IMG/VR virus record: IMGVR_UViG_3300028030_000007
Span: 1-64,000 of that record
Reading direction: 5' to 3' (one strand)
Origin: a virus
DNA length: 64,000 bases
A program made the position numbers and the translations under genes. Below the pieces are notes generated by a model that saw nothing but the letters and a program-made list of their open reading frames with translations, had not been told where the DNA came from and ran no database searches. Positions 1 to 30,490 of this stretch are shown here, piece by piece; position 1 is the first letter of the stretch; every line of letters starts with the position of its first letter.

Positions 1-1749
1 CTAAAATTATACTATAATATTAAATTAGATGACACACTACCTGAAAAAGTATCCGATAGAATAAGAATAACCGATAAATTTAATACAAAAGTACTAGCTG
101 AAATGACAGAAGTACAATACCTGAAATATTTATATGAACAAGGTAGATGCAATATAAAACAACAAGATCTTGATCATCCACGAAAAGAGCTTATTCTTGT
201 TGTTGGTCGTAGGTCCGGTAAGTCTATGATGTCGTCTATCATCAGCGCTTACGAACTGTATAAACTACTTGCTAGAGGAAATCCACAAAAATATTATGGG
301 ATCCCCTCATCGTCAGAAATACGAATAGTTTGTGTCGCTAATGACAAAGATCAGGCGTCCATCGTTTATGGCGACATGGCTGGATATGTTGAAAACATTG
401 AATATTTTAAATCATCGATAGTTAACGACACGCAGACATACATGAAGTTCCAAACGGATCATGATAAAAAGGTATATGGTCCTGGAGGGAAATCATCAAT
501 TACTGCGACGTTCAAATCATCGATCGCTAAAGGTCTCCGTGGTCGAGGTGTCATAACGTTTGTGCTTGACGAGATCGCGTTCTTTGTGAATGACGGTAAA
601 TCATCGGCGGAACAGGTCTACAGAGCGATGAACCCGTCATTGGCTCAGTTTTCACCTAAGGGCGATGACGGTCGAACTCCTATGGGTCCGTCTGATGGTA
701 GAGCGATTTCTATCTCATCCCCAGACGCTAAAGCCGGGTTTTTCTACAATTTGTATCAAAAAGCATTATCCAACAGTAAGGGTAGTCAAAATATGCTTAT
801 GATACAGGCCCCGACTTGGGAGGTCAACCCTACACTTTCATCTGATTATTATATTAACGAGTATGAAAAAGATCCGAACTCATTTATGGTTGAGTTTGGT
901 GCTAGGTTTTCTGATCGTGTTAGAGGCTGGATTGAAGATGAAAAAGACCTTATGCTATGCGTTGACAAAAACCATCGACCTGTCAATTACGGCGATCACA
1001 ATAGCGCTTATTTTGCTGGAATAGACTTCGCGTTAGTTAACGACGGTACGGCGATTTCACTGTTCCGTTTCCATGATAAAAAATTAGAGCTTGCATATCA
1101 TGAAGTTTGGTACGCTAAAATCCCCTGGAAAGAGTCTAATCCACACTTGGATAAGCCGATAGTTCCTTATGCTAATCTACTAGGTAATCTAAATAGATTA
1201 GATATCATTGAAATAGTAAATTGGATCAAACAGTTATCTAAAAGATTTTATATACAAGAGGGAATATTCGACCAATGGGCCGGGCCGGTTTTTGAATCCG
1301 AGCTTATGAAGGTCGGTATTGATCAAATAAAGATGAAGCATTTCTCTGCATATGAATCTGCTTCCATGTATAATGATTTCAAAATGTTTATCATAGGTGA
1401 AAAGATTAGACTATATGATTGGCCTATCATTGAAAATAATGTTGATGGAAGTTCCCTTCATTCACCGCTAATTACGGAGCTTTTAGAACTTCAAGCTACA
1501 TCAATAGGTAAAAACATGTACTCTATTGAGGCCCCTGGTGTTGTAGGTAAACACGATGACGTTTCTGACTCCATGGCTCGTGGTGTTTATTTAGCCTCGC
1601 AGCATTTATCGGAAAATCCTAACCTGATGGAGTTTGGGGGTTTACGACAACCTAATAATAGGGGCGTAACGCCGCATATGACATATAGATCTTATCATAA
1701 TAGAAGAAGACAACTCCATGGGCCTGTAAAATATAGAAGTATTAAATAA
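1..1749 (+). CDS. terL: Terminase large subunit (5'-truncated; frame is open from base 1)
   Basis: Walker A LILVVGRRSGKS, Walker B FVLDEIAFF, coupling motif ISSP, RNase H-like nuclease motifs AGIDFALVNDGTA and HDDVSDS. Frame 1 has no stop from base 1 to 102. Lies directly before the portal. Confidence 0.93.
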   Translation, partial: LKLYYNIKLDDTLPEKVSDRIRITDKFNTKVLAEMTEVQYLKYLYEQGRCNIKQQDLDHPRKELILVVGRRSGKSMMSSIISAYELYKLLARGNPQKYYGIPSSSEIRIVCVANDKDQASIVYGDMAGYVENIEYFKSSIVNDTQTYMKFQTDHDKKVYGPGGKSSITATFKSSIAKGLRGRGVITFVLDEIAFFVNDGKSSAEQVYRAMNPSLAQFSPKGDDGRTPMGPSDGRAISISSPDAKAGFFYNLYQKALSNSKGSQNMLMIQAPTWEVNPTLSSDYYINEYEKDPNSFMVEFGARFSDRVRGWIEDEKDLMLCVDKNHRPVNYGDHNSAYFAGIDFALVNDGTAISLFRFHDKKLELAYHEVWYAKIPWKESNPHLDKPIVPYANLLGNLNRLDIIEIVNWIKQLSKRFYIQEGIFDQWAGPVFESELMKVGIDQIKMKHFSAYESASMYNDFKMFIIGEKIRLYDWPIIENNVDGSSLHSPLITELLELQATSIGKNMYSIEAPGVVGKHDDVSDSMARGVYLASQHLSENPNLMEFGGLRQPNNRGVTPHMTYRSYHNRRRQLHGPVKYRSIK

Positions 1750-1773
1750 TTTTTATTGTATGGTGTTGTAATT

Positions 1774-3492
1774 ATGCCGAAAGTAAAATTAACAAAGTTA
1801 GAAAAGCAGGCTAGAAGAGAGTCACAATCCATTAGAATGGCGTCAGCATACGGTGGTAATGGCGCTTTCGGCGGGTCCGGGGCTGACATAGCTACGGGAA
1901 ACTCTTCATTTTACAGCCCCCAGCTTTCAACAGATTTTCTTGAGCTTCCTCAATCAGAAAGAGAAAAAAGGGAGCTTTTTAGATTTTGGTATACTAGACA
2001 TCCGATTGTCGGTGCTGCAATAGACTTTCACACTGACGTTCCGATGTCCAAGGTTCGTCTTTCACTTCCAAAGGGGAAAGACGAAAAACGAAATAAAGAA
2101 ATTCTAGCATTCTTCCAAAGAATGAGCGATAGAGTTAACTTGTTTCAATCATTGTATGACATAACTCACGAATACTGGCTTCATGGAAATGTGTTTATAT
2201 TCTGTGAAGACCACGACTTGTCTGATGATATTCCTGAAGAGTTTTTATATGATTACGAGGAAGAACAGGTCGGTGAGCTTGAATATGACGGTAATGAGAT
2301 AAAGAAAACAGTAATGAATAAGGTTCCTAAATCCAAGGAACAAAAAGAAGAACTAATTAGAAAATACGTACAAAAGAAATATGACGGATATCAAAGAATA
2401 CAAATACTGCCTCCAGAGCAAATAAAAATAGAGACGTATCAGTATACAAATCGCATAAAGATGGAACTCATTCCGTCAGAAAAGGATAAAAGCGCGATCA
2501 TAGAGGCTCAGGATGGCAATGCACAATCTGCTAGAATAGCGGACGATATACCGAATGAAATAAGAAAATCTCTGATCGAGGGAGGATCAATTCCCCTTAA
2601 TACAAGCCCGTATGATGATTTCCTCTGTTCTTCATTCTGTTATCATCTTTCACACAAAAGATCCCCGTACGATGAACGTGGGATCTCGATTTTAGAAAGA
2701 TGTCTGACAACGCTACTTTATCAAGATAAACTTCGTCAGGCTCAGACATCTATCGCTTCGAGGGCCATGACTCCGAAACGTGTGATCTGGGCGGATAAAG
2801 CGTCTGTTATGGACGTTGAGGATCTACGCGCTCAAATCGATCAAGCGTTGATTGATCCTGACTATTCTATCATTACAAACTACGAAGTACACTGGGACGA
2901 AATTGGGTCAAGGGATCGTCTGTTGGACTTGGCGTCTGAATATGAATCAACAAACAAACTTCTGTATATCGGGCTAAGAATAACCGAGTCGATGCTTACC
3001 GGTGAGTCCACTTATACCGGGGAACGCATTCACTTGGATGTTATGAACACGATGTACTTGCTTTATAGAGAGCAAGTTGCTGGTTCATTTGTTGAGGAAA
3101 ATCTGTTCAAGCCGGTGGCGGAAAAGAAAGGATTTTGGGAGGAAGATGAATTCGGAAATAAGATCTTGCTCTATCCAAAACTTCAGTTTACACGTCTTGC
3201 GCTCCGTGACAATAGTGAGCTTTCTGATTATATGTTCAATTTGTATCAAAAAGGCTCACTACCTGTGGAGTATATTTATGAACTTCTTAACATAGATCCT
3301 GGTGATGCGCATGAACTATTGAAACGGGATTTGTTCACTGTTAAGGATAGCACGTTCAATGAGTTCTTGAGAAACGTCATGCAAGCCTCTGCTGCTGATA
3401 TCGCTCAAAATTCAAATATCAGTGAAGTTATATCAGAAAATAGCGGTCTTCAATACACGTCAACAGATAAAAAAGAAGAGAGTAGATTCTAG
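1774..3492 (+). CDS. Portal protein
   Basis: Follows TerL; about 570 aa. Portal-like segments FWYTRHPIVGAAIDFH, EYWLHGNVF and RGISILERCL. ATG at 1774 preferred over TTG at 1756. Confidence 0.85.
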   Translation: MPKVKLTKLEKQARRESQSIRMASAYGGNGAFGGSGADIATGNSSFYSPQLSTDFLELPQSEREKRELFRFWYTRHPIVGAAIDFHTDVPMSKVRLSLPKGKDEKRNKEILAFFQRMSDRVNLFQSLYDITHEYWLHGNVFIFCEDHDLSDDIPEEFLYDYEEEQVGELEYDGNEIKKTVMNKVPKSKEQKEELIRKYVQKKYDGYQRIQILPPEQIKIETYQYTNRIKMELIPSEKDKSAIIEAQDGNAQSARIADDIPNEIRKSLIEGGSIPLNTSPYDDFLCSSFCYHLSHKRSPYDERGISILERCLTTLLYQDKLRQAQTSIASRAMTPKRVIWADKASVMDVEDLRAQIDQALIDPDYSIITNYEVHWDEIGSRDRLLDLASEYESTNKLLYIGLRITESMLTGESTYTGERIHLDVMNTMYLLYREQVAGSFVEENLFKPVAEKKGFWEEDEFGNKILLYPKLQFTRLALRDNSELSDYMFNLYQKGSLPVEYIYELLNIDPGDAHELLKRDLFTVKDSTFNEFLRNVMQASAADIAQNSNISEVISENSGLQYTSTDKKEESRF

Positions 3493-8674: not shown

Positions 8675-10264
8675 ATGGCTCACAAAAAATACGCACATGC
8701 AGTCCTGACAGATAAAGTATTTCCATTCGAAAAGTGGATGGATGAGATAGTAAGTCATAACGATACGTCAATACTGCATGATAACTCAAAATACAGGAGA
8801 GCCTCTAAAGTATTACAAAAGGTAGATCCGAGTAAGTATTTACTATCACATGCTACTATTATAGCATCGGTTGATACATATGCTCCTAAAAATGTTAAAT
8901 TAGGAAAACGTATGTATGCCGGTAATCAGATAAATGTTAAATATCCTGATTATAGAATGAAGCCATATGGATTTAAGATTATAAATAATAATGGTGACGC
9001 ATGGGAAAGATCATTACTACTCTCTACATATAGAACCTTCATTGGTGCTCCAAATTATCTTGAACATGTTCAAATACCGGATTTATCAAAGGGCTTTATA
9101 ATTGATGCTGTAGCTAGAGATCTCGGTGAATCGTGTTATATTGACATTTTAGTGGCCACTGATAAAAAGCACTCAAAATTAGTTACTGACATTGAAAATG
9201 ATGTTATCACCGGTCTTTCAATGGGCTGCATATCACAGTTCACTATATGTACGAAATGTGGAAATGTTGCTTATGATGATTCACAACTCTGCTCTTGTAT
9301 TCAATATGAGGGTAAGGGAACGATGTTCACAGATGAAAATGGAGATGAGCACCCGATCTGTGAGCTAGTAGGACACGTTAGTGATCCAACGTCAAATCAG
9401 TTTATTGAGGCTTCGTGGGTACATTCACCGGCATTCGCTGGAGCTGTAAAAAGAAACATACTAAATTATGATATTAAAGAAGTAACCAATAAGATGGCGA
9501 CAGCGGTTGAAAACAGTTCTGGCATTTTCATTGATGGGAAAATGAAAAAAGTCGCTGCCGATGAAGATGCTGCCGATGAACCGGCACCGGCACCGGAACC
9601 GGAATCGGATGGACCTAGCATGCCTGGTCTCGATGGACCTGGTAGTTTATTAGGTGGTCCTGGTGGATCCGATGATGAACCTGACGACAAACAAGAAGAT
9701 GATAAAGAAGGTGGGATCGTACTGGATTCTATTGATGATATTAAAAAAGAAATACTAAATATGGTTAGAAAAGAGATTAAGAGGGAACTATCATCTCTTA
9801 ATATAAATGAAATAGATACAGTAGATTTCGCAGAGGCTAACGTAACAAATTCACACGGTGAAAAGAATAAGGGCAGTGAAGCTTCTGTAGATAAAGAAAA
9901 TAGTAATGTTCAGCACGCATTCATTGAAAATGTTAAATCTAAGATTAAGGATCCGAGAATCGTTGATTGGACGGTAAAAATGTCCAGTCGATTAGCATCT
10001 AATAACCTATCAAACATAACTGATAAACATATACTATCATTTTCATTAATTAATGATGCTATATCAGGTAAAAAATATAATAAGAAATTATATAAGGTTA
10101 TGAATAAAGTAGGTAGGATTAGTAAATATAGTAGTAAAAAACAATTCTTAATGAAATGCGGATCTATTTTAAATAGGAAGATGACCCATGATGAAATGAA
10201 ATTTTTCATTGAGAAGGGTACTATATTAAATGATGTTTACAATGTTAAGAAACATAGTAAATAA
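8675..10264 (+). CDS. Prohead maturation protease (HK97/herpes-assemblin-like fold) with Cys-rich Zn insertion and acidic linker
   Basis: NNNGD...NYLEH (catalytic His region), GLSMGC (Ser nucleophile), CTKCGN..CSC, FIEASWVHSPAF. Positioned before scaffold and MCP. Confidence 0.8.
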   Translation: MAHKKYAHAVLTDKVFPFEKWMDEIVSHNDTSILHDNSKYRRASKVLQKVDPSKYLLSHATIIASVDTYAPKNVKLGKRMYAGNQINVKYPDYRMKPYGFKIINNNGDAWERSLLLSTYRTFIGAPNYLEHVQIPDLSKGFIIDAVARDLGESCYIDILVATDKKHSKLVTDIENDVITGLSMGCISQFTICTKCGNVAYDDSQLCSCIQYEGKGTMFTDENGDEHPICELVGHVSDPTSNQFIEASWVHSPAFAGAVKRNILNYDIKEVTNKMATAVENSSGIFIDGKMKKVAADEDAADEPAPAPEPESDGPSMPGLDGPGSLLGGPGGSDDEPDDKQEDDKEGGIVLDSIDDIKKEILNMVRKEIKRELSSLNINEIDTVDFAEANVTNSHGEKNKGSEASVDKENSNVQHAFIENVKSKIKDPRIVDWTVKMSSRLASNNLSNITDKHILSFSLINDAISGKKYNKKLYKVMNKVGRISKYSSKKQFLMKCGSILNRKMTHDEMKFFIEKGTILNDVYNVKKHSK

Positions 10265-12312: not shown

Positions 12313-13206
12313 ATGAGTCTTTTTGATTTCAATAAGTCCGTTGATCCCATTGCTGCCGAAAAGTTCTTCGGTGGGCTAGTCGGTAGTCCGCAAGGACGCA
12401 TGAGAATTGCGTCTGGCATGACCCAATCTCTCCGCGAGCGCAGAGATTATTCATCCGTTGGACGCCGAGCGTTCCTCGTCGAGCAGATTCCTGATGGAGT
12501 TCTGCCCTATTATGACAAGGATCCTGACGTCGTGGCCTACGTGGTTGGTGAAGAGGGTGACTCAATTACCGCTAAAGCTAAGCCTCGCCGCGTTACGTTC
12601 CCCCTGTTCGAGATTGCTGCTCTCGTCAAGACCCCGCTTTCTCAGGTCAAAGAGCGTCGTTATGACATGCTCAAGAGAATGCAGGACCTTGGCAAAGCCC
12701 AGATTCAAGCTGCTGAGGACGATCGAGTTTTCTCAATTATGGACGCTATCGCCCTTAATGGTTTCGACTCACTTCCCGGCCAGTTGAACGCTGACATTCC
12801 CGTCGCCGCTCCTCTTACTTCAGAGGTCTTGGCTGATGCTTTCGCTCAGATCGACCGCCATGACTTGAGGACGTCAAACGTCTTCATGAACGCTGTTGAC
12901 TACGCCGACCTTCGTAAGTTCGGTCGAGAGGTCTTGGACATCGAGTCACAGGCCACTCTCTGGAAGACGGGCGTGATGGCTTCTGGCTGGAATGCCAAGT
13001 TCATCGTTTCACGCCTTGTCCCGCCAGGCGTCGTTTACGTCACTGGTGAGCCTGAGCATTTCGGTCGTATTCCGGTCCGAACCGAGCTTACCGTCATCTC
13101 CGCTGACAACCCCGAAGAGCGAACCATCGGTTTCTCGATGTTTGAGCAGCTCGGAATCGGTGCGTTCAACCCGCGTGCTCTCGTCCGCATCCTGATCGCT
13201 CGATAA
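12313..13206 (+). CDS. Major capsid protein (HK97 fold, no delta domain)
   Basis: Follows protease and scaffold; SD AAGGA; strongest codon bias in the window (C-ending codons; 0 of 18 Ile codons are ATA); followed by a strong hairpin. Confidence 0.88.
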   Translation: MSLFDFNKSVDPIAAEKFFGGLVGSPQGRMRIASGMTQSLRERRDYSSVGRRAFLVEQIPDGVLPYYDKDPDVVAYVVGEEGDSITAKAKPRRVTFPLFEIAALVKTPLSQVKERRYDMLKRMQDLGKAQIQAAEDDRVFSIMDAIALNGFDSLPGQLNADIPVAAPLTSEVLADAFAQIDRHDLRTSNVFMNAVDYADLRKFGREVLDIESQATLWKTGVMASGWNAKFIVSRLVPPGVVYVTGEPEHFGRIPVRTELTVISADNPEERTIGFSMFEQLGIGAFNPRALVRILIAR

Positions 13207-13322: not shown

Positions 13323-14336
13323 ATGCAGGAGACTACCATAATGAATATCAAAAGAGTGATTAACTTTATCAAAAATGACAACACTATTGGTTATATAAAA
13401 AAGTTTTTATACTTAGTTGAAAACCTTGATAAGTTAGATAATGTATATAATAAACTAAAACAACAGGAGTGGATTGAATCATTTGATTTTAATAATTATG
13501 ATGAATCAAATGACGAGCAGTATATAATTGATTTTATTAATGGTAACATAAACGATAGAACCCATATTGCATCAAAAATAAATAAATTGATAAAGAATGA
13601 TGTAGGTGCTAGGTCATTAGCAAGAAATATTCTTTGTGTTGATCATATTCCCGATTATATAATTCCGATGTATTCAATAAATGAAAATGGAACTCCATAC
13701 GTAATAGGTGATGAGGATGGCATAACAAGAATAGACGCTGATAAAACTTTCACCGTTCCAATATTTGACATAACACATAATGTACATTCAAGCTCACGTA
13801 ATGTTAAGAGTGGTGTCTACAGCCTACTCAAAACAATGCGTAATTTATGCTCATCACAAATACTAGTGGCTGAGAGCATGCATTTGTTATCATTAATCAA
13901 TGCTTCTTATAATGATGACAATGAAAAAGTAAAAAATATCATGTCAATAAATGATAAACTTACACCTGATGTGATATCTGATGCATTTTCTATAATAGAG
14001 GATAATGATGTGGAGGTATCATCGATAATAATAAACCCTAATGATTATTCAGAAATAAGAAAATTTAATGGTGAAATTTTGGATACAGATTTTAATACAA
14101 ATAATGTTATTAAATCACGTATTTGGGGAGCGAACGTATTTGTTACAGGAATGGCAACCGCCGGGACCATTACGGTTCTTGGATCACCTAAGCATGTTGG
14201 TGCTATGCCAATTAGAACAGATATCACATCGTTACCCTATGATAACCCAGAACAGAGAAAAATTGGATTTAATACATTTGAGAATATCGGTATAATGTAT
14301 AATGGTCAAAAGAATACAGTTAGAATTACATTGTAA
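13323..14336 (+). CDS. Major capsid protein paralogue (diverged, N-terminally extended)
   Basis: Colinear with MCP: HIPDYIIPMY/QIPDGVLPYY, VPIFDI/FPLFEI, LTPDVISDAF/LTSEVLADAF, DYSEIRKF/DYADLRKF, PIRTDIT..DNPEQRKIGF/PVRTELT..DNPEERTIGF. Confidence 0.85.
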   Translation: MQETTIMNIKRVINFIKNDNTIGYIKKFLYLVENLDKLDNVYNKLKQQEWIESFDFNNYDESNDEQYIIDFINGNINDRTHIASKINKLIKNDVGARSLARNILCVDHIPDYIIPMYSINENGTPYVIGDEDGITRIDADKTFTVPIFDITHNVHSSSRNVKSGVYSLLKTMRNLCSSQILVAESMHLLSLINASYNDDNEKVKNIMSINDKLTPDVISDAFSIIEDNDVEVSSIIINPNDYSEIRKFNGEILDTDFNTNNVIKSRIWGANVFVTGMATAGTITVLGSPKHVGAMPIRTDITSLPYDNPEQRKIGFNTFENIGIMYNGQKNTVRITL

Positions 14337-14843: not shown

Positions 14844-16178
14844 ATGAAAAAAGTTTTAATAGCTTTGATTTCAATACTTGCGATAGCTATCATATCATCA
14901 AAGTTATACTATAATAGTTTATTAACTAAGTATAACATAACATCGATTTATTTACTGTTAGACAAAACAATTTTAGTTCATAAAAATTCAGTCACAATAG
15001 GAAAAAATTTATTTAAATCATGTGACGCACACGTTAACGTAGAAACTAAAGACGTTGACGTGTACTGCAAATCAGGAGCTGTATACACTAACAGTAAAAT
15101 AAAATCTCATAGTCCCGGTAAGAGAAAGTGGAATATTAAGTCTGTATATGTCGAAAATGTTGTAGTAAATGGTAAGTATAGGGTCCATGGATTGTTAAAA
15201 TCTAACGGAACGTACATCGCAGTGTCTACTAAATACAGGGGCGCATCGTTATCATACGTGGTGAAATATAATAATGGTATGTACGTAATAAATCATGCCA
15301 ATTACAAAACTGTTGACTTACACAGTGTGATGGTAAAGGATGATGAAGTTAACATCGGAAAATTTAGTCTGTCGAATTCAATGTTATCATCAAAGAAATT
15401 TGAATACAATAACATACTCATAAAATCAACGAATAAGATTACTAGAATATCGTTTCCCATGAGTTTGTCACTGTCTATTGATGGGACGAAACTTGGATAT
15501 TTAACGTTAGAATCAAAGAGTAAACTTAGTTATAAATTAGACACTAATTGTAATAATCTGACAAAAATTGCCGATGATGTTAGATTAAAGAAAGTAAAGT
15601 TTGGAGGATCTTATCATTTATCGTTTTCATATGATAACGGAAAAACCCATTTTAGCATGAGACATTCCTGTTTTGTCAAGCATTTACCTAAAAGTATAAG
15701 ATCAGTCTTGCAATATAGAAGTAGAAATTGGGTTAGTATTACAAATATATCAGATTACATGATAGAAGCCATTATTCATCATGAGGATCCTGGATTTATG
15801 GTAAACAACGGATTTTCAATAGGGGCGATCCGAAATTCAATAAAATATGATTTAAAACATAAAGCTTTCAAAAAGGGGGCGAGCACAATAACTATGCAGC
15901 TCGCTAAGAATCTCTTTCTTAAAAAAGAAAAAACAATCATGAGAAAATATGATGAAATGTTATATACTATGATACTAAACAATGCATTAACTAAGAGATC
16001 TATAATGGAAATGTACATGAATAGCGTTGAATTTGGTCCAGGTATTTATGGAATAAATAAAACAGCGTTAAAAATGTTTGATACGACACCAGCAAACCTG
16101 ACTCAAGATCAGTCAGAGTACATAGCTCGCATTCATCCAAATCCTAAACTTTTTTCAAGAAAATACGTGAAGCCATGA
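14844..16178 (+). CDS. Monofunctional peptidoglycan glycosyltransferase (GT51, MtgA-like) with N-terminal membrane anchor
   Basis: N-terminal hydrophobic helix; GT51 motifs HEDPGF, GASTITMQLAKNLFL, RKYDE, KRSIMEMYMN, GIYGI; no transpeptidase domain. Confidence 0.88.
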   Translation: MKKVLIALISILAIAIISSKLYYNSLLTKYNITSIYLLLDKTILVHKNSVTIGKNLFKSCDAHVNVETKDVDVYCKSGAVYTNSKIKSHSPGKRKWNIKSVYVENVVVNGKYRVHGLLKSNGTYIAVSTKYRGASLSYVVKYNNGMYVINHANYKTVDLHSVMVKDDEVNIGKFSLSNSMLSSKKFEYNNILIKSTNKITRISFPMSLSLSIDGTKLGYLTLESKSKLSYKLDTNCNNLTKIADDVRLKKVKFGGSYHLSFSYDNGKTHFSMRHSCFVKHLPKSIRSVLQYRSRNWVSITNISDYMIEAIIHHEDPGFMVNNGFSIGAIRNSIKYDLKHKAFKKGASTITMQLAKNLFLKKEKTIMRKYDEMLYTMILNNALTKRSIMEMYMNSVEFGPGIYGINKTALKMFDTTPANLTQDQSEYIARIHPNPKLFSRKYVKP

Positions 16179-22865: not shown

Positions 22866-24119
22866 ATGCCCGCCCCAGAGGATAGAGTACCCAGAATAAT
22901 AAAGTATAAGCTTCAAGAGAGGTGGTCTACTCAGTATCCTCTTCCCCCAAAAGACGTTCAATACATACCGTGCTACGATCGTGGAAGGAATGACATTCGT
23001 TGGTCAAACCCGTCAGAGCTTGTGGGTAATGATGAGTTTGAAATAATCGGTGTTAATATTTACAGGTCATTTGATTCTTCTAGTGGACCATTCACTAGGC
23101 TTAATACTCATCCGGTTTCTTCACAATTTTGGAGAGATGACACAAAAATACGTGTTATTATAGATGAGGATGTGCATCATCATCTGCTTTCTAATGGTGA
23201 TGATGTACATGGTGATATTATACTACAAACGCAATATAAACCAATTTATATACATACTAGTCGTGATACACATGCTACGCTATATCATAACATAGATGTA
23301 AAAGTAAATAAAAAGAAGGTTCCCATATACTCTGTTGATAAAGTTAACGGTGTTATAACGTTGGATCGTACTTGGGTATTTGATGTTATATCACAATCAT
23401 TTGATAGATCAGATCTATCTAATTTAGATAGTGTTCCATTCACGATATCATACAAATATACTGAGAATGAACTTAATCAAAATATTTCACATAAATGTTT
23501 TTATAGAATAACAACGGTGGCTATGCATGACGGTGAACTCATTGAAACACCGATCGAGAGAGCTACGTCAACTAATAACGGTGAACTTGAAAGATTAGAT
23601 TATATCTGGGAAGAAGCCATACGACGAAATATGTGGATACTTTACCAGGGCGGTGAAAGAGTAAAACTTTTCATAAGAAAAACGACTGGCATCAAATGTA
23701 CATGTTATTCAGAAGAACATGGAAGAGCCAGAAATGACTGTCCAACTTGTTATGGGACCGGTTACGTCGGTGGGTATGAAGGGCCATTTGACATGATAAT
23801 CGCCCCTGATGACTCAGAAAAACAGATAGCACAATCTAACTTAGGGCTTTCTATGCACCACTCGTATGAGACATGGACAAGCCCATACCCAATGTTATCA
23901 CAACGAGATTTCATAGTAAAAAGAAACGGAGACAGGTATGGTATTGGTCCGGTTAGGATGCCGACCAATAGAGGAATGCAACTGCAACAGCATTTCACCG
24001 TTTCCCATTTAGACGATTCTGACGTGAGATATAACGTTCGAGTTGACGACTCAGACGTGATAGTTGATCCGACGATAAAAGATTCTACGACTCAAGAAAA
24101 TATAATGCGTTATTACTAA
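22866..24119 (+). CDS. Head completion / closure protein with Zn finger
   Basis: CTC...CPTCYGTGYVGGY motif in the C-terminal domain; N-terminal FN3/Ig-like region; synteny. Confidence 0.6.
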   Translation: MPAPEDRVPRIIKYKLQERWSTQYPLPPKDVQYIPCYDRGRNDIRWSNPSELVGNDEFEIIGVNIYRSFDSSSGPFTRLNTHPVSSQFWRDDTKIRVIIDEDVHHHLLSNGDDVHGDIILQTQYKPIYIHTSRDTHATLYHNIDVKVNKKKVPIYSVDKVNGVITLDRTWVFDVISQSFDRSDLSNLDSVPFTISYKYTENELNQNISHKCFYRITTVAMHDGELIETPIERATSTNNGELERLDYIWEEAIRRNMWILYQGGERVKLFIRKTTGIKCTCYSEEHGRARNDCPTCYGTGYVGGYEGPFDMIIAPDDSEKQIAQSNLGLSMHHSYETWTSPYPMLSQRDFIVKRNGDRYGIGPVRMPTNRGMQLQQHFTVSHLDDSDVRYNVRVDDSDVIVDPTIKDSTTQENIMRYY

Positions 24120-24919
24120 CGCTTAATCATACCGCCGTATTTCACTACAAATCCACCAGGTAATTGAACGATAGCGGACTTTTTCTTATTTTTGATCACA
24201 TCGCTAATCGCTTCAATGTGGGATCTTTTGATTGAGTTTTCCATTTTATACTCAGACAGGTCGTCTGCTATGTTGCAAAGATGTTTTACGACCGATGGAG
24301 AGATCTCTTCAAGTTGTGGCAGAATACTATGTCTAATTCTAGACCTTAAGTACTTTTCATTGAAATTTGATGGATCGATAGCGTATTCAACGCCAACATC
24401 GTCTAAATATTTTTGAATTTGATCTTTTCTTAAGTGAAGGATCGGTCTGATGATCGTTATGTTTTCATCACTATTTTTATTCATGGGTGGCATGACTGAA
24501 AGACCGTTCGGACCGGATCCTCGAAGGATTCTCATGAGAACGGTTTCAGCCTTATCGTCGGCGTGATGTCCTAGAGCTAGTTTATTACGATCGTGTTGTT
24601 TGGCTATTTTGTATATTACCTTGTATCTTTCATCCCTAGCATTTTGCATAACATTTCTTGACCCATCAAAATGAATAGAAACACCGGTAAACATGAACCC
24701 GAATGATTTAGCTAATTTCCCTGCCAGTTTTACTTCATCTTTTGACTCTGGTCTTAGGTTATGATCTACTGATATTACGTGTACGTTTTTATAACCCAGT
24801 TTCCCTAAGGCATAGACTAAAAGTTGTGAATCCGGCCCGCCGGACGATCCAACAGCGAGTCTATCGTCTTCGTTAATTAAACCGTGTTTTTTGATGTATG
24901 ATGCGATTGATGATATCAT
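24116..24919 (-). CDS. tilS: tRNA(Ile)-lysidine synthetase (short form)
   Basis: PP-loop SGGPDS, VDHNLR, ARDERY, GHHADDKAETVLMRILRGSG, IIRPIL, DPSN...RSRIRH. Confidence 0.93.
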   Translation of the reverse strand: MISSIASYIKKHGLINEDDRLAVGSSGGPDSQLLVYALGKLGYKNVHVISVDHNLRPESKDEVKLAGKLAKSFGFMFTGVSIHFDGSRNVMQNARDERYKVIYKIAKQHDRNKLALGHHADDKAETVLMRILRGSGPNGLSVMPPMNKNSDENITIIRPILHLRKDQIQKYLDDVGVEYAIDPSNFNEKYLRSRIRHSILPQLEEISPSVVKHLCNIADDLSEYKMENSIKRSHIEAISDVIKNKKKSAIVQLPGGFVVKYGGMIKR

Positions 24920-24978
24920 TTGTTTTTAAATCTTTTTTCTATTTTGTTTATGTAAAATTACACCTGTATGCTAAAAAT

Positions 24979-25386
24979 ATGAAGACATCATCTAAAATGA
25001 AACAATACTCTGGGTGGGGAGAGTATGAAAATAGTCAGCTTTGTATCGATATTAAAAACGATATTATAAAAAGGGCTAGAAGGCTTGCTTCAACGTTAAC
25101 GTTGGATGAAGACATTGTTAAATTTGACCCATACGCTAATGAGTTTATTGATTTCATTAAAAACACTATAGATGATATTTATAATTGTGATTTGATCAAG
25201 GAGTTAAGAAAAATCCTTGAGGGTGAGTTTAAATCTGTTCATGACAACGCGTACAAATTTGAAATAAATCCTCCGACATATAAACAATCAAGTGGTTGGA
25301 AAATTTACAATAAATTCATTGGAAAGATCTACGCTATAATATATTATACCGATAATATAGGTAAAGGAAATAGAACTTATTCATGA
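24979..25386 (+). CDS. Hypothetical protein
   Basis: ATG 24979 preferred (the ORF-track start overlaps tilS); contains RRLAS; ATGA overlap with the next gene. Confidence 0.5.
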   Translation: MKTSSKMKQYSGWGEYENSQLCIDIKNDIIKRARRLASTLTLDEDIVKFDPYANEFIDFIKNTIDDIYNCDLIKELRKILEGEFKSVHDNAYKFEINPPTYKQSSGWKIYNKFIGKIYAIIYYTDNIGKGNRTYS

Positions 25387-25955
25387 AAAAGTCGGACGGA
25401 ATAAGGTCAAAAATAATTGACGCGGTTGTAAAGAGCACACCGTCAGTAATAAATAGAATACTAGTTGATGGACATGTAATAATAGATGGTACAGAAATTT
25501 CCGCGTATAAGAAGAAAGATGGTATCATAATAGAGATAGAGGTTCCGACAGACTCAATAAAAATTTCCGGGAAAGATGACAATAAACCTGCTAAAAAAAG
25601 AATAGAAACCGCTAGGGAAATATACGAAAAGAATCAAGATATAATACACGGCAGAAAAAATGTCAGTCGAGGGACTAAGGGGAAAGTAGGCGTTAGCAAA
25701 GCATATGCATCAAAGAATTTCAATCCAACAACGAAAAGAGACGTTAGACAATTGTCTAGAAAACAGGTTGAATATAACGTTGATATTGACGATGAAGTAG
25801 AAGTATTCATTGAAGACAATGGTAAAGTTATTAGTGTGAATTCCGATAAACAAAGGAATGACATACTAAACAAATACTCTGAAAAGATAACTAAGGTTAT
25901 AACTAAATCACTCTCTGAACATATTGAAAAACTGATCGGTGAAAGTAAATTATGA
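25383..25955 (+). CDS. Hypothetical basic protein
   Basis: 190 aa; ATGA overlaps on both sides. Confidence 0.6.
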   Translation: MKKSDGIRSKIIDAVVKSTPSVINRILVDGHVIIDGTEISAYKKKDGIIIEIEVPTDSIKISGKDDNKPAKKRIETAREIYEKNQDIIHGRKNVSRGTKGKVGVSKAYASKNFNPTTKRDVRQLSRKQVEYNVDIDDEVEVFIEDNGKVISVNSDKQRNDILNKYSEKITKVITKSLSEHIEKLIGESKL

Positions 25956-26572
25956 AAGCTTACAAAATAACAAATAACTCAAACATGAACATAAGAATAG
26001 AAGATATCGGTGTTCAGATAAACTCTAAATGTTCTTGTATCGTATCTCAACAACAACTCGGTTCATCGAGTGATATAAATAGATTTTCAGATTACATAAC
26101 AGTAAATGAAATAGTAGTAAATAACCCGTCATCAATACATAAACCGAGTTTTATAAAAAAGCATGGTCAGATAATATTCAATCCGATCATGGAAAAGAAA
26201 GAAAGTCATACCGAAGAAAGAATAGACGATATAAACAAACATTTAGTCGGGCTTAACAAATCGATAGAAGAATTGAAGAGTCTAATAAATGAAAGAGCAA
26301 GATTGATTGAAGAAAGTAAATCGATCATAAAGTATGAAATAGAGAAACAACCGGGGTCAGAAAGTAAAATTGATGAAGATCCGGAAAGTATGATAGTTGT
26401 TGGTGAACTTGTTCCGACACCTAAAGAAACACAGATCAATATTAGGTCAAAAGAAACTGAGTCAGAATCGTTTTCTTCTGCTAGAAAGGCGTTGAAAAAC
26501 GCTAGGAAATCCACTAAGAAGCCGTCAAGAAAATCAACCAAGAAACCCGCCAGGAAATCAACTAAAAAATGA
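25952..26572 (+). CDS. Hypothetical coiled-coil protein with histone-H1-like C-terminal tail
   Basis: Central heptad segment; tail ARKSTKKPSRKSTKKPARKSTKK. Confidence 0.6.
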   Translation: MKAYKITNNSNMNIRIEDIGVQINSKCSCIVSQQQLGSSSDINRFSDYITVNEIVVNNPSSIHKPSFIKKHGQIIFNPIMEKKESHTEERIDDINKHLVGLNKSIEELKSLINERARLIEESKSIIKYEIEKQPGSESKIDEDPESMIVVGELVPTPKETQINIRSKETESESFSSARKALKNARKSTKKPSRKSTKKPARKSTKK

Positions 26573-26943
26573 ATAAAAAACAGTTTTTATTGCAACTAGC
26601 GGATCATCACTCTAGACTGGCGGCATCATTCAATAAGATCGCTCGCGATGAAGAGTGTCGTACATTATTGGACACTGCAAGCACACTTATAAAAAAGTCC
26701 ATACAATACTCATTTATGAGTAGACTTGATAATCCGATGTTGTATGTTCAACAGTTTAATAATATATTAAATAATAATCTTGATAAACTCATTGAATGCG
26801 GGATCACTAAAAGTTATATGTTACAACTTGTTCAAGATTTGACTAGATATGAAGTTGATAGAGCGTCAAAAGTATCCGATAACAAATTTCATGAAAATGT
26901 ATTAAGAAAACTAATACAAGTTGTAACCCGTCAAAATTGGTAA
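26569..26943 (+). CDS. Hypothetical protein with MNK..FL..L..HH.RLA.SF.K.A leader
   Basis: First 25 aa are homologous to those of ORF 30026. Confidence 0.65.
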   Translation: MNKKQFLLQLADHHSRLAASFNKIARDEECRTLLDTASTLIKKSIQYSFMSRLDNPMLYVQQFNNILNNNLDKLIECGITKSYMLQLVQDLTRYEVDRASKVSDNKFHENVLRKLIQVVTRQNW

Positions 26944-27010
26944 AAACGTAGGCGGCTGTTGTATTGTATTGTTATTCAATGACCGCCTACGAAAGTATTT
27001 GGAGATACTA

Positions 27011-27994
27011 ATGGAACCTGGAGTTGGACTAGATTGTGGAACAATGAACTTTGTCTCTGCCAGAAGAAATGGCAAGAAGATATCTACATCGAGACTTCGG
27101 GATGTGTTCATTGATCTTCCTAAAGAAAATAAAAGGATGCTTAAACTATCAAAAACCTCATACATAGAGTATGACGGAAAATTGATAGTAATAGGTGATG
27201 AAGCTATACAAACGGCGAACTTGTTTAATAAAGAGGTTCGTCGTCCAATGAATAACGGAATAATTTCATCAGGAGAGATTGAAGCCAGAAGCGTCATGGC
27301 AATAATGATGAAACAGCTTCTAGGCGATCCGATAGCAGAGAATGAAAAATGTTGTTACTCTGTTCCGGCGAAGTCCATAGATAACAATTCTGACATTATC
27401 TATCATAGAGCGATGTTAGGAATGATACTCGAAGAAATAGGGTATGACCCTGAGCCAATAAATGAATCTCTGGCCGTTATCTATTCTGAGTGTGAAAAAG
27501 ATAACTTTTCAGGGATCGCGCTTTCATTTGGGTCCGGGATGACCAACGTTTGTATGTCGTATAATGCTATGAGCGCTATGGAGTTTTCCCTAGGTAGAGG
27601 CGGCGATTGGGTTGACAATGGAGCGGCGAAGGCTGTTGGAAGTACATCAGCTAAGATGTGCTCAATAAAAGAAAAGGGTGTGAATATTAAAGCACCTAGT
27701 AGTAGAAATGAAGAGGCCATAGCGCTTTATATAAGGGAACTCATCGATTATTCCATTAAGGGAATCATTAAAGAGTTTTCATCGAATGATAACATAATGA
27801 CGATCCCAACATCTATCCCGATCGTTATATCTGGTGGTACGTCACTCGCTGATGGTTTCGCTGATATGTTCACTGAGAGATTCGAAAAATTTAAGGATAA
27901 GTTTCCTGTTAGCGTGTCAAACATCAGGCAGGCTAAGGATCCACTTACTTCTGTCGCTAATGGTCTTTTGTTAATATCATCACTTGATGATTAA
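27011..27994 (+). CDS. Actin-like ATPase (MreB/MamK-like)
   Basis: Phosphate-1 GLDCGT, IGDEA, RPMNNGII, connect-1 INESLA, phosphate-2 SFGSGMTN, GGDWVD, adenosine ISGGTS, connect-2 DPLTSVANG. GGAG SD before ATG 27011. Confidence 0.9.
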   Translation: MEPGVGLDCGTMNFVSARRNGKKISTSRLRDVFIDLPKENKRMLKLSKTSYIEYDGKLIVIGDEAIQTANLFNKEVRRPMNNGIISSGEIEARSVMAIMMKQLLGDPIAENEKCCYSVPAKSIDNNSDIIYHRAMLGMILEEIGYDPEPINESLAVIYSECEKDNFSGIALSFGSGMTNVCMSYNAMSAMEFSLGRGGDWVDNGAAKAVGSTSAKMCSIKEKGVNIKAPSSRNEEAIALYIRELIDYSIKGIIKEFSSNDNIMTIPTSIPIVISGGTSLADGFADMFTERFEKFKDKFPVSVSNIRQAKDPLTSVANGLLLISSLDD

Positions 27995-28052
27995 GATTTT
28001 TTTATTTGATTAAGTTTAGACAATTTCTAAACCTAACGCAAGGAATATATCG

Positions 28053-28361
28053 ATGGCGAAGATAATGTACAAGGGTGTTACTTTTGTAGTCGGAGATCCG
28101 AAAAAGCCTGAGCCCAAGAAGGTTGAAAAGAAGGCCGAAAAGAAGGCCGAGCCAAAGAAGGCCGAGCCAAAGAAGGTTGAAAAGGTTGAAAAGGTTGAAA
28201 AGGTTGAAAAGAAGCCTGAGCCCAAGAAGCCTGAGCCCAAGAAGCCTGAGCCCAAGAAGCCTGAGCCCAAGAAGCCTGAGCCCAAGAAGGAAGAGCCTAA
28301 GAAGGTGATCACCAGAAGGGCTACAAGAAAAAAGTCAACTAGAAGGTCATCAAAGAAGTAG
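28053..28361 (+). CDS. Lys/Glu/Pro-rich repeat protein with basic tail
   Basis: SD AAGGA; KKPEP, KKAEP and KVE repeats; C-terminus RRATRKKSTRRSSKK. Confidence 0.65.
   Translation: MAKIMYKGVTFVVGDPKKPEPKKVEKKAEKKAEPKKAEPKKVEKVEKVEKVEKKPEPKKPEPKKPEPKKPEPKKPEPKKEEPKKVITRRATRKKSTRRSSKK
28173..28283 (+). repeat. Coding tandem repeats: aaggttgaa x4 then aagaagcctgagccc x5
   Basis: Exact copies at 28173-28208 (9-mer) and 28209-28283 (15-mer). Confidence 0.95.
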
Positions 28362-28368
28362 ATGATAA

Positions 28369-29511
28369 ATGATATCATGGATATCAAACCCAATAAAGAA
28401 ACGGGTAGTTGAATTATTAAAGAATATACTATCCGAAAATCCTAAGTATGCACAATATTCCGATAATATTCTAAATAAATTTTCATATAAAGAGAGACAA
28501 TCTGTCGGAATAATAGTAAACTCCACATCATCAAATAAACTTCACATGTCAGCGGATAACTTCCTAGGGAATTATTATTCGTTTGTCATGTTATCATCGG
28601 TCGATGGTTACTCATCAAAATCCATTGAGTGGGTGAAAGAAGACAGGTATAAACTTCTTCAGTTATCGTCAAAGGCCGATAACTTCCCTACAAAGCCAGG
28701 ATCATACGTCGTTGAGATAACGAAAGTTCCGGACCAAACACCCGGTACTTTTGTTATTTACAGTTATCTCGATGTACGCAGTGAACAGTTAATTCTTGTA
28801 AATACCGGGTCATCTGTGGAGGCCCAACTTCCAGCGACCGATATCGTTGAAAATTCTGTTGATCTGTACTATGATGACAAATATGCGTTAATTAATGGAA
28901 GTGATTACACAATAGATTATGAGTCGGGTCTTATAACGTTCACAGAATTGACCGCTGATGCTAACGTAACCGCGTCATACCGTTATTATAGTGGTAAATC
29001 GTCCGAGTATGAGTATGAATATGACAAATACAATAACACGGCTTTACCTGGTGTTATAATAGCATTTGGTGAGTATTCACAACTAGGTGATAAACAAGTA
29101 ATAACAGTCACGGATGAGAGACTTCACGTTTATGATACATATGGTGGGAGATTTGAAACTGATTTTGGATTAACTTTATTCACTAAAGATCCAGAAGAAA
29201 GAGAAAGACTGACAGATTATATAATACTAAAGATACTTCAATCACAAAGTAGTCTAGCTGATGAGGGAATAGAAATTCTTAACGTAGGTCATGGCGGGGA
29301 AGACGAAGAAGCTTATAACTCAGAAACTGATGAGTATTACTACGAATCAAACGTAAGTTTGCAACTTCGCGTTGATTGGATGATTTACAAGCCAAAGGTT
29401 ATAACTTCAATAGGCTACAATTTGAATGATGATAATCATCCAGAAAAAGCTAGCACAGTTATAAATGTGTGCAATGTATACAGAAATACAACAATACCGA
29501 TGATGAGATAG
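28369..29511 (+). CDS. Tail completion / terminator-like protein
   Basis: Upstream of the sheath; Ig-like insert (DYTIDYESGLITF); C-terminal tail-terminator-like strand/helix pattern. Confidence 0.5.
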   Translation: MISWISNPIKKRVVELLKNILSENPKYAQYSDNILNKFSYKERQSVGIIVNSTSSNKLHMSADNFLGNYYSFVMLSSVDGYSSKSIEWVKEDRYKLLQLSSKADNFPTKPGSYVVEITKVPDQTPGTFVIYSYLDVRSEQLILVNTGSSVEAQLPATDIVENSVDLYYDDKYALINGSDYTIDYESGLITFTELTADANVTASYRYYSGKSSEYEYEYDKYNNTALPGVIIAFGEYSQLGDKQVITVTDERLHVYDTYGGRFETDFGLTLFTKDPEERERLTDYIILKILQSQSSLADEGIEILNVGHGGEDEEAYNSETDEYYYESNVSLQLRVDWMIYKPKVITSIGYNLNDDNHPEKASTVINVCNVYRNTTIPMMR

Positions 29512-29553
29512 TGTATAGTTATATATGTTAACCCACTACAAGGAATCACTATA

Positions 29554-30000
29554 ATGCCGATATATGAATACTACTGTGAAAAATGTAACTATTTGTTTGA
29601 ACAGTTACTAAATAGTTCTGAAAAAGAAGAATATAAAGACGGTTATCCATGCCCACAATGCGGTAAGATCGCCACAAAGTTGATATCAAAGTCTAATTTT
29701 GTTTTTAAATCAGACACTCCCGGTAACTCTGGAGTCCATGATCTGGACTACCCATCGGTTGATAAAGCCGTAGGACGTTCAGCCAATAGAAAGTGGAAAG
29801 AAATACACAAACAACAAGAAGCTAGGGACAAGGTAAGGAAAGAAACCGGTAAACAAGCACTGTCTACCGTATCAATAGCTGAGAATAAATACAAGCCAGC
29901 TAGCAAGGACATACTAGAAGACAGAAAAAAACTAAACAAAAAACTATCCAATATACCAGAATCTAATTTCATTAAATACGAACCATCAGTGAAAAAATAA
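29554..30000 (+). CDS. FmdB-family zinc-ribbon protein
   Basis: MPIYEYYCEKCNYLFEQL...CPQCG...KLIS signature. Confidence 0.8.
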   Translation: MPIYEYYCEKCNYLFEQLLNSSEKEEYKDGYPCPQCGKIATKLISKSNFVFKSDTPGNSGVHDLDYPSVDKAVGRSANRKWKEIHKQQEARDKVRKETGKQALSTVSIAENKYKPASKDILEDRKKLNKKLSNIPESNFIKYEPSVKK

Positions 30001-30025: not shown

Positions 30026-30490
30026 ATGAATAAAGTAGAATTTTTAATGTCGCTGTCAAAGCATCATGAAAGGTTAGCCTCATCGTTTAGAAAAGAGGCT
30101 TCACTCATTAGTGATGATGTTGATCAGTATGGTCCCCAGGAAGACTCTATTGACATTTGGAAGTTAATTCCCATTGTTGATAATGAGGTTGTCGGCATAG
30201 GTGATATGCTGGAGGACCTTAGAGAGACCATCATGGGCGAGTACAATGGTACACGCTCTGTTAACGATATACTATCTGTATTCTACACTATATATGACAT
30301 GATTTCTCATCTTGCAGAAAGTGTCAAGGAAATCGATAAAGCTATTGGTGGCGATGAATACACGAAAAAGTACAGGTCAAAGCTTTTGAACATGATCCAT
30401 TTTTCTGAAATGCCTAATAAAAAGTATGCATGGATGAAGAGTGAACTTGCAGAGTTTATCGGTGAAAAGCTTTCATCAAATTTGTGGTGA
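30026..30490 (+). CDS. Hypothetical protein with leader shared with ORF 26569
   Basis: MNKVEFLMSLSKHHERLASSFRKEAS. Confidence 0.65.
   Translation: MNKVEFLMSLSKHHERLASSFRKEASLISDDVDQYGPQEDSIDIWKLIPIVDNEVVGIGDMLEDLRETIMGEYNGTRSVNDILSVFYTIYDMISHLAESVKEIDKAIGGDEYTKKYRSKLLNMIHFSEMPNKKYAWMKSELAEFIGEKLSSNLW

Follow-up and report, generated by a model that had tools for sequence, protein, structure and literature searches.

What does an actin do among the neck and tail genes of a tailed phage? The question is raised by a stretch of 64,000 nucleotides (nt) of viral DNA (positions 1 to 64,000 of IMG/VR record IMGVR_UViG_3300028030_000007; the whole of this stretch is called the window here), in which the first-pass annotation, made from the letters alone, had described an actin-like gene flanked by genes for proteins with lysine-rich tails. 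Our analysis places this gene (27011-27994) in a phage-specific branch of the volactin family, as a true member of the actin superfamily, and reveals that, within one clade of huge phages (sizes of about 240-530 kb), it has a near-obligate linkage to a partner gene upstream and to the genes of neck and tail.

Comparison of the loci fetched with the actin revealed one gene order, kept in phages of 240-430 kb: a protein of 298 amino acids (aa), the 417-aa virion-structural-like protein, a protein of about 220 aa, the partner of about 190 aa, an optional insert, the actin, a small protein, a 402-aa protein, a zinc-ribbon protein and the tail sheath. A tail-terminator-like homologue was found downstream of the actin in all related loci, and a partner homologue was found directly upstream of it in all 26 loci with enough sequence, including those of distant actins (47-50% identical). 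Because loci fetched with the actin would make such a comparison circular, the neighbouring gene was used as an actin-independent probe, and 80 loci were fetched by an alignment profile of the 402-aa tail-terminator-like protein; a scan of viral contigs with the 380-aa neighbour as a single protein found nothing, and the alignment-based scan succeeded. Sixty-four of the fetched loci, some of them near-duplicates, contained at least 2.5 kb upstream of the probe. An actin gene was present just upstream and on the same strand in 62 of these, and a recognisable partner in 58. The first-pass annotation had named synteny in related phages as a check on its reading and had taken the upstream protein for a partner of the actin; both the linkage to structural genes and the partnership are kept at these frequencies. 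The "neck-tail operon" setting described there was likewise found, with the virion-structural-like gene upstream and the tail-terminator-like gene and tail sheath downstream. Homologues of the virion-structural-like protein are 38-49% identical and occur at the same relative position in related loci. The tail-terminator-like assignment comes from an Atlas lead to SP10_terminator (feature score 0.91, 176 shared features); a profile of the 402-aa neighbour gave, as its best result against PDB sequences, a weak match to a distal tail protein (E 0.12).

Comparison with Pfam revealed a match of the actin to Volactin (PF25216) with 272 bits against a cut-off of 35 (E 9e-81), covering profile positions 3-318 of 321. 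The only other Pfam matches at E<=10 were to Actin (E 0.015) and DDR (E 0.055), and no MreB_Mbl (PF06723), HSP70, FtsA or ParM-type match was found even at that threshold. The complete set of actin-fold motifs noticed in the first pass was confirmed, namely (residues counted from the ATG at 27011) phosphate-1 GLDCGT at 6-11, RRPMNNGII at 77-85, connect-1 NESLAV at 151-156, phosphate-2 LSFGSGMTNV at 171-180, adenosine SGGTS at 274-278 and DPLTSVANG at 310-318. The open reading frame (ORF) had been called from a TTG (26969-27994). The gene is taken as 27011-27994 because the ATG at 27011 is preceded, at a distance of 8-11 nt, by a GGAG and the public gene call (327 aa) also begins there, and because the TTG at 26969 is buried in a stable hairpin (26947-26991); the ATG is likely to be the true start and the TTG is unlikely. 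Four proteins of the region (the actin, its partner, the product of the 124-aa ORF between them and the small KKPEP-repeat protein downstream) had no family in PHROGs or NCBIfam.

An AlphaFold (AF2) model of the actin, built on 21 relatives, reached a predicted local distance difference test (pLDDT) value of 91 and a predicted template modelling (pTM) score of 0.89. Comparison of this model with solved folds using Foldseek identified the MamK filament as the best match (template modelling (TM) score 0.74), followed by Mbl/MreB, BeeR, and eukaryotic actin and actin-related proteins, at 12-21% identity; against MreB of T. maritima and C. crescentus the TM score was 0.64-0.70 with 16-18% identity. 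The top solved structural matches are all polymerising actins. No Hsp70 and no sugar kinase appeared among the 50 structural rows listed, ParM was not among the best solved folds listed, and the viral structure library offered nothing closer to the actin than generic proteins of the actin fold (TM about 0.6). The predicted structure supports an actin fold of the filament-forming kind. The earlier label "MreB/MamK-like" therefore describes the nearest solved structures and the local wording of the motifs correctly, and fails as a family assignment, the family being Volactin. The following candidate memberships were rejected: MreB, for which there was no MreB_Mbl match at E<=10 and a likeness of fold only; MamK, at 19-21% identity and with phage structural genes around the actin instead of magnetosome genes; and Hsp70/DnaK, for which there was no HSP70 match at E<=10, 327 aa being the nucleotide-binding fold only, without the C-terminal substrate-binding domain.

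The first-pass annotation was also right that the phosphate-2 aspartic acid is replaced (SFGSG). The serine found in its place (S172) is invariant in 21 phage sequences and occurs in five haloarchaeal volactins as well, which are 42-44% identical to the phage actin by alignment. In living Haloferax volcanii the filaments of volactin are dynamic: they elongate and rapidly depolymerise (PMC10869688). Since the serine is invariant in the phages and present in haloarchaeal volactins, including one that polymerises, it is a family signature and no mark of inactivity. A dead ATPase as the meaning of this serine was ruled out, the residue being family-wide.

Analysis of the partner revealed low overall identity among its homologues (13-27%) and two kept parts. 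The first is an N-terminal domain of about 55 aa (alignment A3), and the second is a C-terminal module consisting of the motif P-x-F-I-P-S-x-I-V-P, an acidic spacer and a helix ending A-L-K-K-x-R-K-K. Outside the N-terminal domain the best-kept positions of the same alignment (P146, A180 and L181) sit in this tail. The segments of the predicted structure of the window's partner are given in Table 1; its long helix and its three RKSTKK(P) units agree with the coiled-coil protein ending in three RKSTKKP units that had been described before. The lysine-rich tails to which the first-pass annotation drew attention are present, and the long ones proved to be lineage-specific expansions of a short conserved basic end. 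No Pfam domain, ribbon-helix-helix signature, membrane segment or FimV domain was found in the partner. Phage and haloarchaeal volactins carry short acidic C-terminal tails (e.g. MDD, EDDE), and the partner and the small downstream protein carry basic ones; these opposite charges suggest an electrostatic contact between the actin and its neighbours besides that of the helix.

Volactins are also encoded by cells. Matches to PF25216 were found in 60 of 101 sampled genomes of Halobacteria (about 450 bits) and in 22 of 301 sampled genomes of Pseudomonadota (about 240 bits), several of the latter on chromosomal contigs, up to 2.3 Mb long, that bear no phage genes. The tree consists of three clades, phage (97/94), haloarchaeal (100/99) and bacterial chromosomal (100/100), about 40% identical to each other, and it places the phage actin in a distinct subfamily outside the clade of the characterised haloarchaeal protein. 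From ten cellular loci, 1206 six-frame ORFs were screened with a profile of 47 positions made from the tail of the phage partners. The three best matches were the ORF directly upstream of the volactin in three of the five haloarchaeal loci (E 4.8e-4, 0.054 and 0.24, of which only the first is significant alone), and all three belong to DUF7139. Searched against 4436 ORFs of the window and of a complete relative of 362,524 bp with terminal repeats (G001), the same profile identified the partner only, the next best match having E 2.2. Analysis of three bacterial chromosomal loci revealed that the two genes before the volactin, encoding a FimV_N membrane protein of 560-650 aa and a protein of 133-169 aa with two transmembrane segments, both end in a FIPS-like motif, about 20 residues and a basic helix of the type GDVAKKL. 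In all three groups (archaea, bacteria and phages) the tail thus appears to accompany volactin on proteins that otherwise differ, as would be expected of an actin-docking peptide placed on exchangeable anchors. The loci with the FimV_N and two-transmembrane-segment genes are from Pseudomonadota (L113, L114 (= L112) and L115); in two others (L110 and L111) the bacterial volactin gene follows FtsH-like and PP2C-like genes instead. No description of a bacterial volactin system was found.

The phage actin is widespread and well kept. A word-indexed search identified 2290 relatives, the best 120 of them at 57-66% identity and many on contigs of 240-440 kb, and an exhaustive search of representatives at 50% identity gave 1064 clusters at E<=1e-3, of which 331 remained at E<=1e-30. 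Among GenBank phages only two relatives were found, both in uncultured huge phages (485 and 595 kb). Compared with G001 the actin is 65.9% identical, third of the 31 shared proteins; the corresponding values are 77% for the major capsid protein, 66.6% for the portal, 51.5% for TerL and 43% for the sheath. In some relatives (P0121 and P0125) the actin is split by inteins (Intein_splicing and LAGLIDADG), which the window's actin does not contain. One of the two inteins separates the G from the S in the phosphate-2 loop, and the other interrupts the RGGDW motif; inteins typically occupy functionally critical sites. No tubulin (PF00091) was found in any of the five relatives rated 100% complete (362-529 kb), four of which have terminal repeats and one of which (529 kb) is classed as a provirus by IMG/VR. 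Some members of the family are tandem double actins with two Volactin domains in 729 aa (among the relatives P0124, P0133 and P0137), and others have N-terminal extensions of several hundred residues, that of P0133 being long and acidic.

The reading that we favour, with a little better than even confidence, is that the phage makes an actin filament and an adaptor dedicated to it, both expressed along with the neck and tail genes, and that these organise assembly in space. The actin would polymerise with nucleotide into dynamic filaments, as does the Haloferax volactin. The partner would dimerise through its long helix, dock on the actin via its disordered C-terminal module (the FIPS-type motif and the ALKKxRKK helix), by the logic of ParR-ParM and AlpA-AlpC, and hold a cargo with its soluble N-terminal beta domain; the phage would have kept the docking tail and swapped a membrane anchor for a soluble head. 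A late role in assembly would be expected because the module is co-oriented with, and embedded between, the neck and tail-terminator genes, and once made it would organise virion assembly in a role like that of the PhuZ tubulin spindle in Chimalliviridae, perhaps collecting or transporting filled heads, tails or DNA. Through its basic or SAP ends the small protein encoded downstream may connect nucleic acid with the system, and this is the weakest step of the proposal. We hold more tentatively, as a possibility short of an even chance, the wider view that huge phages lacking tubulin run a positioning or transport system based on actin, in which the common volactin docking tail is retained, the anchor is replaced by a cargo-binding head and the filaments move or gather capsids, tails or DNA where virions are assembled. 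The first-pass proposal of a late actin filament with basic adaptors that organise assembly is upheld in the filament type of the actin, the location in a morphogenesis block and the conserved upstream partner, and it is weaker for the small KKPEP protein, which is not constant.

Several observations weigh against this reading. The FIPS-type motif is degenerate in the window's partner and in its closest relative. A fold search with the partner gave generic coiled-coil matches only (Z<=5.8), Atlas returned viral hypothetical clusters only, and neither the window nor G001 encodes a paralogue of the N-terminal domain, the proposed holder of the cargo. The likeness of the bacterial tails comes from inspection and a regular expression, and the tail profile did not score them; the upstream DUF7139 arrangement is absent from two haloarchaeal loci (Natronomonas). 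As for the actin, a serine in place of the phosphate-2 aspartic acid could slow hydrolysis, a search of PDB sequences gave nothing at E<=1, and no volactin structure has been solved. Among GenBank phages and in the viral structure library no cultured phage with this actin gene was found, and there is therefore no virion proteome and no infection imaging of the actin. Late timing is inferred from gene position only; scans for promoters and terminators gave no signal above shuffled sequences.

The location between neck-like and tail-terminator-like genes and the non-canonical phosphate-2 would also suit a non-polymerising actin-fold ATPase that acts as a chaperone of morphogenesis or as an assembly factor, in head-tail joining or tail completion, with the upstream protein as its co-factor or substrate. 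The Hsp70h of closteroviruses is an actin-fold ATPase that serves virion assembly, and viral Hsp70-like proteins (TM about 0.6) are the nearest models that the viral structure library contains. We nevertheless consider such an ATPase unlikely here. The actin has neither an Hsp70 match in Pfam nor room for a substrate-binding domain, every one of its best solved matches forms filaments, and a member of its family polymerises in vivo (PMC10869688). Furthermore, the same tail is found on membrane proteins beside cellular volactins, which have no virions to assemble.

The MreB-like motifs and fold, the FimV-like hub proteins that adjoin bacterial chromosomal volactins and the GT51 peptidoglycan polymerase encoded in the window, with a homologue in G001, can be read in another way, as signs that the phage takes over the host envelope or cytoskeleton. 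The actin would then co-assemble with MreB-like systems or displace them, or be anchored at the poles, and so reshape or enlarge the cell to suit very large virions, perhaps together with the GT51 enzyme. This explanation appears improbable to us, since the phage partner contains no membrane segment or FimV domain, the GT51 gene is unlinked to the actin (about 33 kb apart in G001), the actin stands in a separate clade with about 40% identity to those of cells and has no MreB_Mbl match, and the conserved linkage is with neck and tail genes. Least probable of all is a positioning system of the ParM/AlpC type, in which phage DNA and not virions would be the cargo, moved or anchored by the filaments by way of a DNA-binding adaptor, whether as replicating genomes or as a plasmid-like prophage: its logic is known from ParMRC and from AlpA/AlpC of prophage CGP3 (PMC4446434), and the basic tails of the neighbours, the SAP end on the small downstream protein of some relatives and the provirus classification of the 529-kb relative agree with it, but there is no centromere-like repeat array near the module, the N-terminal domain of the partner is not recognisably DNA-binding, the module lies among structural and not replication or early genes, and the SAP or basic protein occurs in only 17 of 42 distinct loci.

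Each of the known systems compared shares some features with the module and differs in others. The volactin VolA (HVO_2015) of Haloferax volcanii is closest to the actin itself, with PF25216 over its full length, the serine-type phosphate-2 and the same order of motifs, and haloarchaeal volactins in general share the alignment identity given above (about 40-41% by BLASTP) and an upstream gene with a related C-terminal tail. They differ in that the phage actin forms a separate, well-supported clade and scores 272 bits against about 450, and in that their partner DUF7139 is a membrane protein, whereas the phage partner is a soluble protein with a beta domain and a coiled coil, encoded among neck and tail genes. 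Volactin acts in the rod-to-disk shape transition of Haloferax volcanii (PMC10869688), a role ruled out in a bacterial host.

Of the published phage systems the nearest is AlpC/AlpA of the Corynebacterium glutamicum prophage CGP3, a phage actin-like protein with a co-transcribed upstream adaptor that links cargo to the filaments (PMC4446434). The likeness is one of organisation, a phage-encoded actin with a putative adaptor gene just upstream. AlpAC differs in being encoded by early genes of a temperate prophage, AlpA binding a DNA site in its own promoter and supporting replication, whereas the window's module lies in the structural block of huge phages and no such DNA site or repeat was seen. 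ParM/ParR/parC offers a similar analogy, with an actin and an adjacent small adaptor of which the C-terminus would be expected to dock and the N-terminus to hold the cargo; parC-like repeats and the ribbon-helix-helix adaptor signature are absent from the window, and the setting is one of virion genes. MamK and MreB/Mbl provide the nearest solved structures and similar wording (RP..G.I and DPLT.VA.G), and they differ in their low identity (16-21%), in having aspartic acid at phosphate-2 and in a magnetosome or Rod-complex context that the window does not contain. The PhuZ spindle of Chimalliviridae is, by functional analogy only, also a cytoskeletal polymer of very large phages that positions and delivers assembly intermediates. 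PhuZ is a tubulin, whereas the window encodes an actin and its five complete relatives no tubulin, and nothing indicates a phage nucleus here.

Analysis of the small elements around the actin separated variable parts from the conserved module. The KKPEP-repeat protein with an Arg/Lys tail is as first described, with five KKPEP units confirmed among K/E/P-rich repeats, perfect 15-nt units among them, and an N-terminal YKGV-x-F motif. It has no significant sequence match in related loci. Positional counterparts were found in 17 of 42 distinct loci, with an N-terminal [aromatic/H]-[KR]-G-[VLI] motif and a Pro/Ala/Glu-rich linker; their ends are basic in 12, SAP-like in two and of other kinds in three, and a SAP domain scored above the Pfam cut-off in the relatives L015 and L065. 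At the level of sequence motifs the small protein is kept in the inner clade only and is not a constant part of the module, and a nucleic-acid-binding end on it is plausible. Inserted ORFs similar to GIY-YIG and HNH endonucleases were observed between the actin and the terminator-like gene in six loci (L003, L004, L014, L015, L019 and L059), and this intergenic site resembles a mobile-gene hotspot.

The partner, the 124-aa ORF, the actin and the KKPEP protein are four co-oriented ORFs. The 124-aa ORF has no homologue in related loci, which have other variable inserts or none at that spot, and it is placed by this comparison outside the conserved module, as an ORF specific to the window's phage; it shares an N-terminal stretch of about 25 aa with the otherwise unrelated ORF at 30026-30490 (phmmer E 1.2e-9). 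The hairpin before the ribosome-binding site of the actin has a predicted energy of -22.2 kcal/mol (z -3.1; none of 200 shuffles was as stable) and no T-run after it, and a second, small hairpin covers the GGAG of the actin. The larger hairpin may serve in processing, in stability or in the control of translation. No intergenic centromere-like repeat array was found in 24000-29600, repeats occurring only in coding low-complexity regions.

The window as a whole is a tailed-phage structural block. The record containing it is an 88-kb IMG/VR fragment for which CheckV gives a completeness of 20%, and this suggests a full genome of about 0.4 Mb. The DNA probably comes from a hydrothermal vent metagenome, the source of the sole sequencing run carrying the window stretch; this is a DNA run, and no RNA run was listed for the stretch. 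The TilS-like and GT51 peptidoglycan polymerase genes of this very large uncultured phage point, from what is generally known of both enzymes, to a bacterial host. The TilS-like gene lies on the opposite strand within the otherwise co-oriented neck cluster and was not found there in the relatives examined. The homologue of the GT51 protein in G001 is 30% identical. Two capsid-protein paralogues lie side by side, the first 77% identical to the major capsid protein of G001 and the second 31% identical to the same G001 gene.

Table 1. Features of the window and segments of the predicted partner structure (positions in nt of the window unless given as residues)
Feature	Position	Strand	Assignment and remarks
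TerL	103-1749		
Portal	1756-3492		
Protease	8675-10264		
Major capsid protein	12313-13206		assigned from 77% match in G001; no PHROG scan of this gene
Major-head-protein-like paralogue	13323-14336		phrog_2522
GT51 transglycosylase	14844-16178		PF00912, E 1e-42; head-gene region
Virion-structural-like protein, 417 aa	22866-24119	+	PHROG 38102 and 1004, "virion structural protein"
TilS-like PP-loop gene	24116-24919	-	PF01171, E 2e-45
Partner, 206 aa	25952-26572	+	candidate adaptor
Partner, beta-rich domain	residues 1-57		pLDDT 96
Partner, disordered linker	residues about 60-85		low pLDDT
Partner, long helix	residues 86-131		pLDDT 92-96
Partner, disordered stretch	residues 132-172		low pLDDT; diverged FIPS-type motif
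Partner, C-terminal helix	residues 173-188		pLDDT about 75; core ALKN-ARK
Partner, disordered basic end	residues 189-206		three RKSTKK(P) units
Inserted ORF, 124 aa	26569-26943	+	
Stem-loop	26947-26991	+	inverted repeat and RNA fold
Volactin-family actin, 327 aa	27011-27994	+	Pfam PF25216
KKPEP protein, small and basic, 102 aa	28053-28361	+	
Tail-terminator-like neighbour, family of 380-402 aa	28369-29511	+	Atlas lead to SP10_terminator
Tail sheath, 1686 aa	31082-36142	+	phrog_2839, E 2.5e-27; kept downstream in relatives

The searchable literature contained nothing that links volactin to phages and, from 2023 on, nothing on filaments of actin-like proteins of jumbo phages; the phage actin is not discussed in the huge-phage papers that were compared. 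To our knowledge, two phage cytoskeletons have been recognised so far, the spindle of PhuZ tubulin and one prophage actin (AlpC), and the volactin family has been studied in one haloarchaeon only. The module described here would be a third phage cytoskeletal system beside these two. If the filaments and the docking are real, it would answer, in a form that can be tested, the question of how giant phages that lack tubulin organise their assembly. A short peptide motif could then define the partners of volactin in archaea and bacteria, including FimV-like polar hub proteins, and the system would link the evolution of archaeal, bacterial and viral actins. The wider view, if true, would mean a viral actin cytoskeleton inside bacteria and a general, hitherto unrecognised code between volactin and its adaptors across the three groups.

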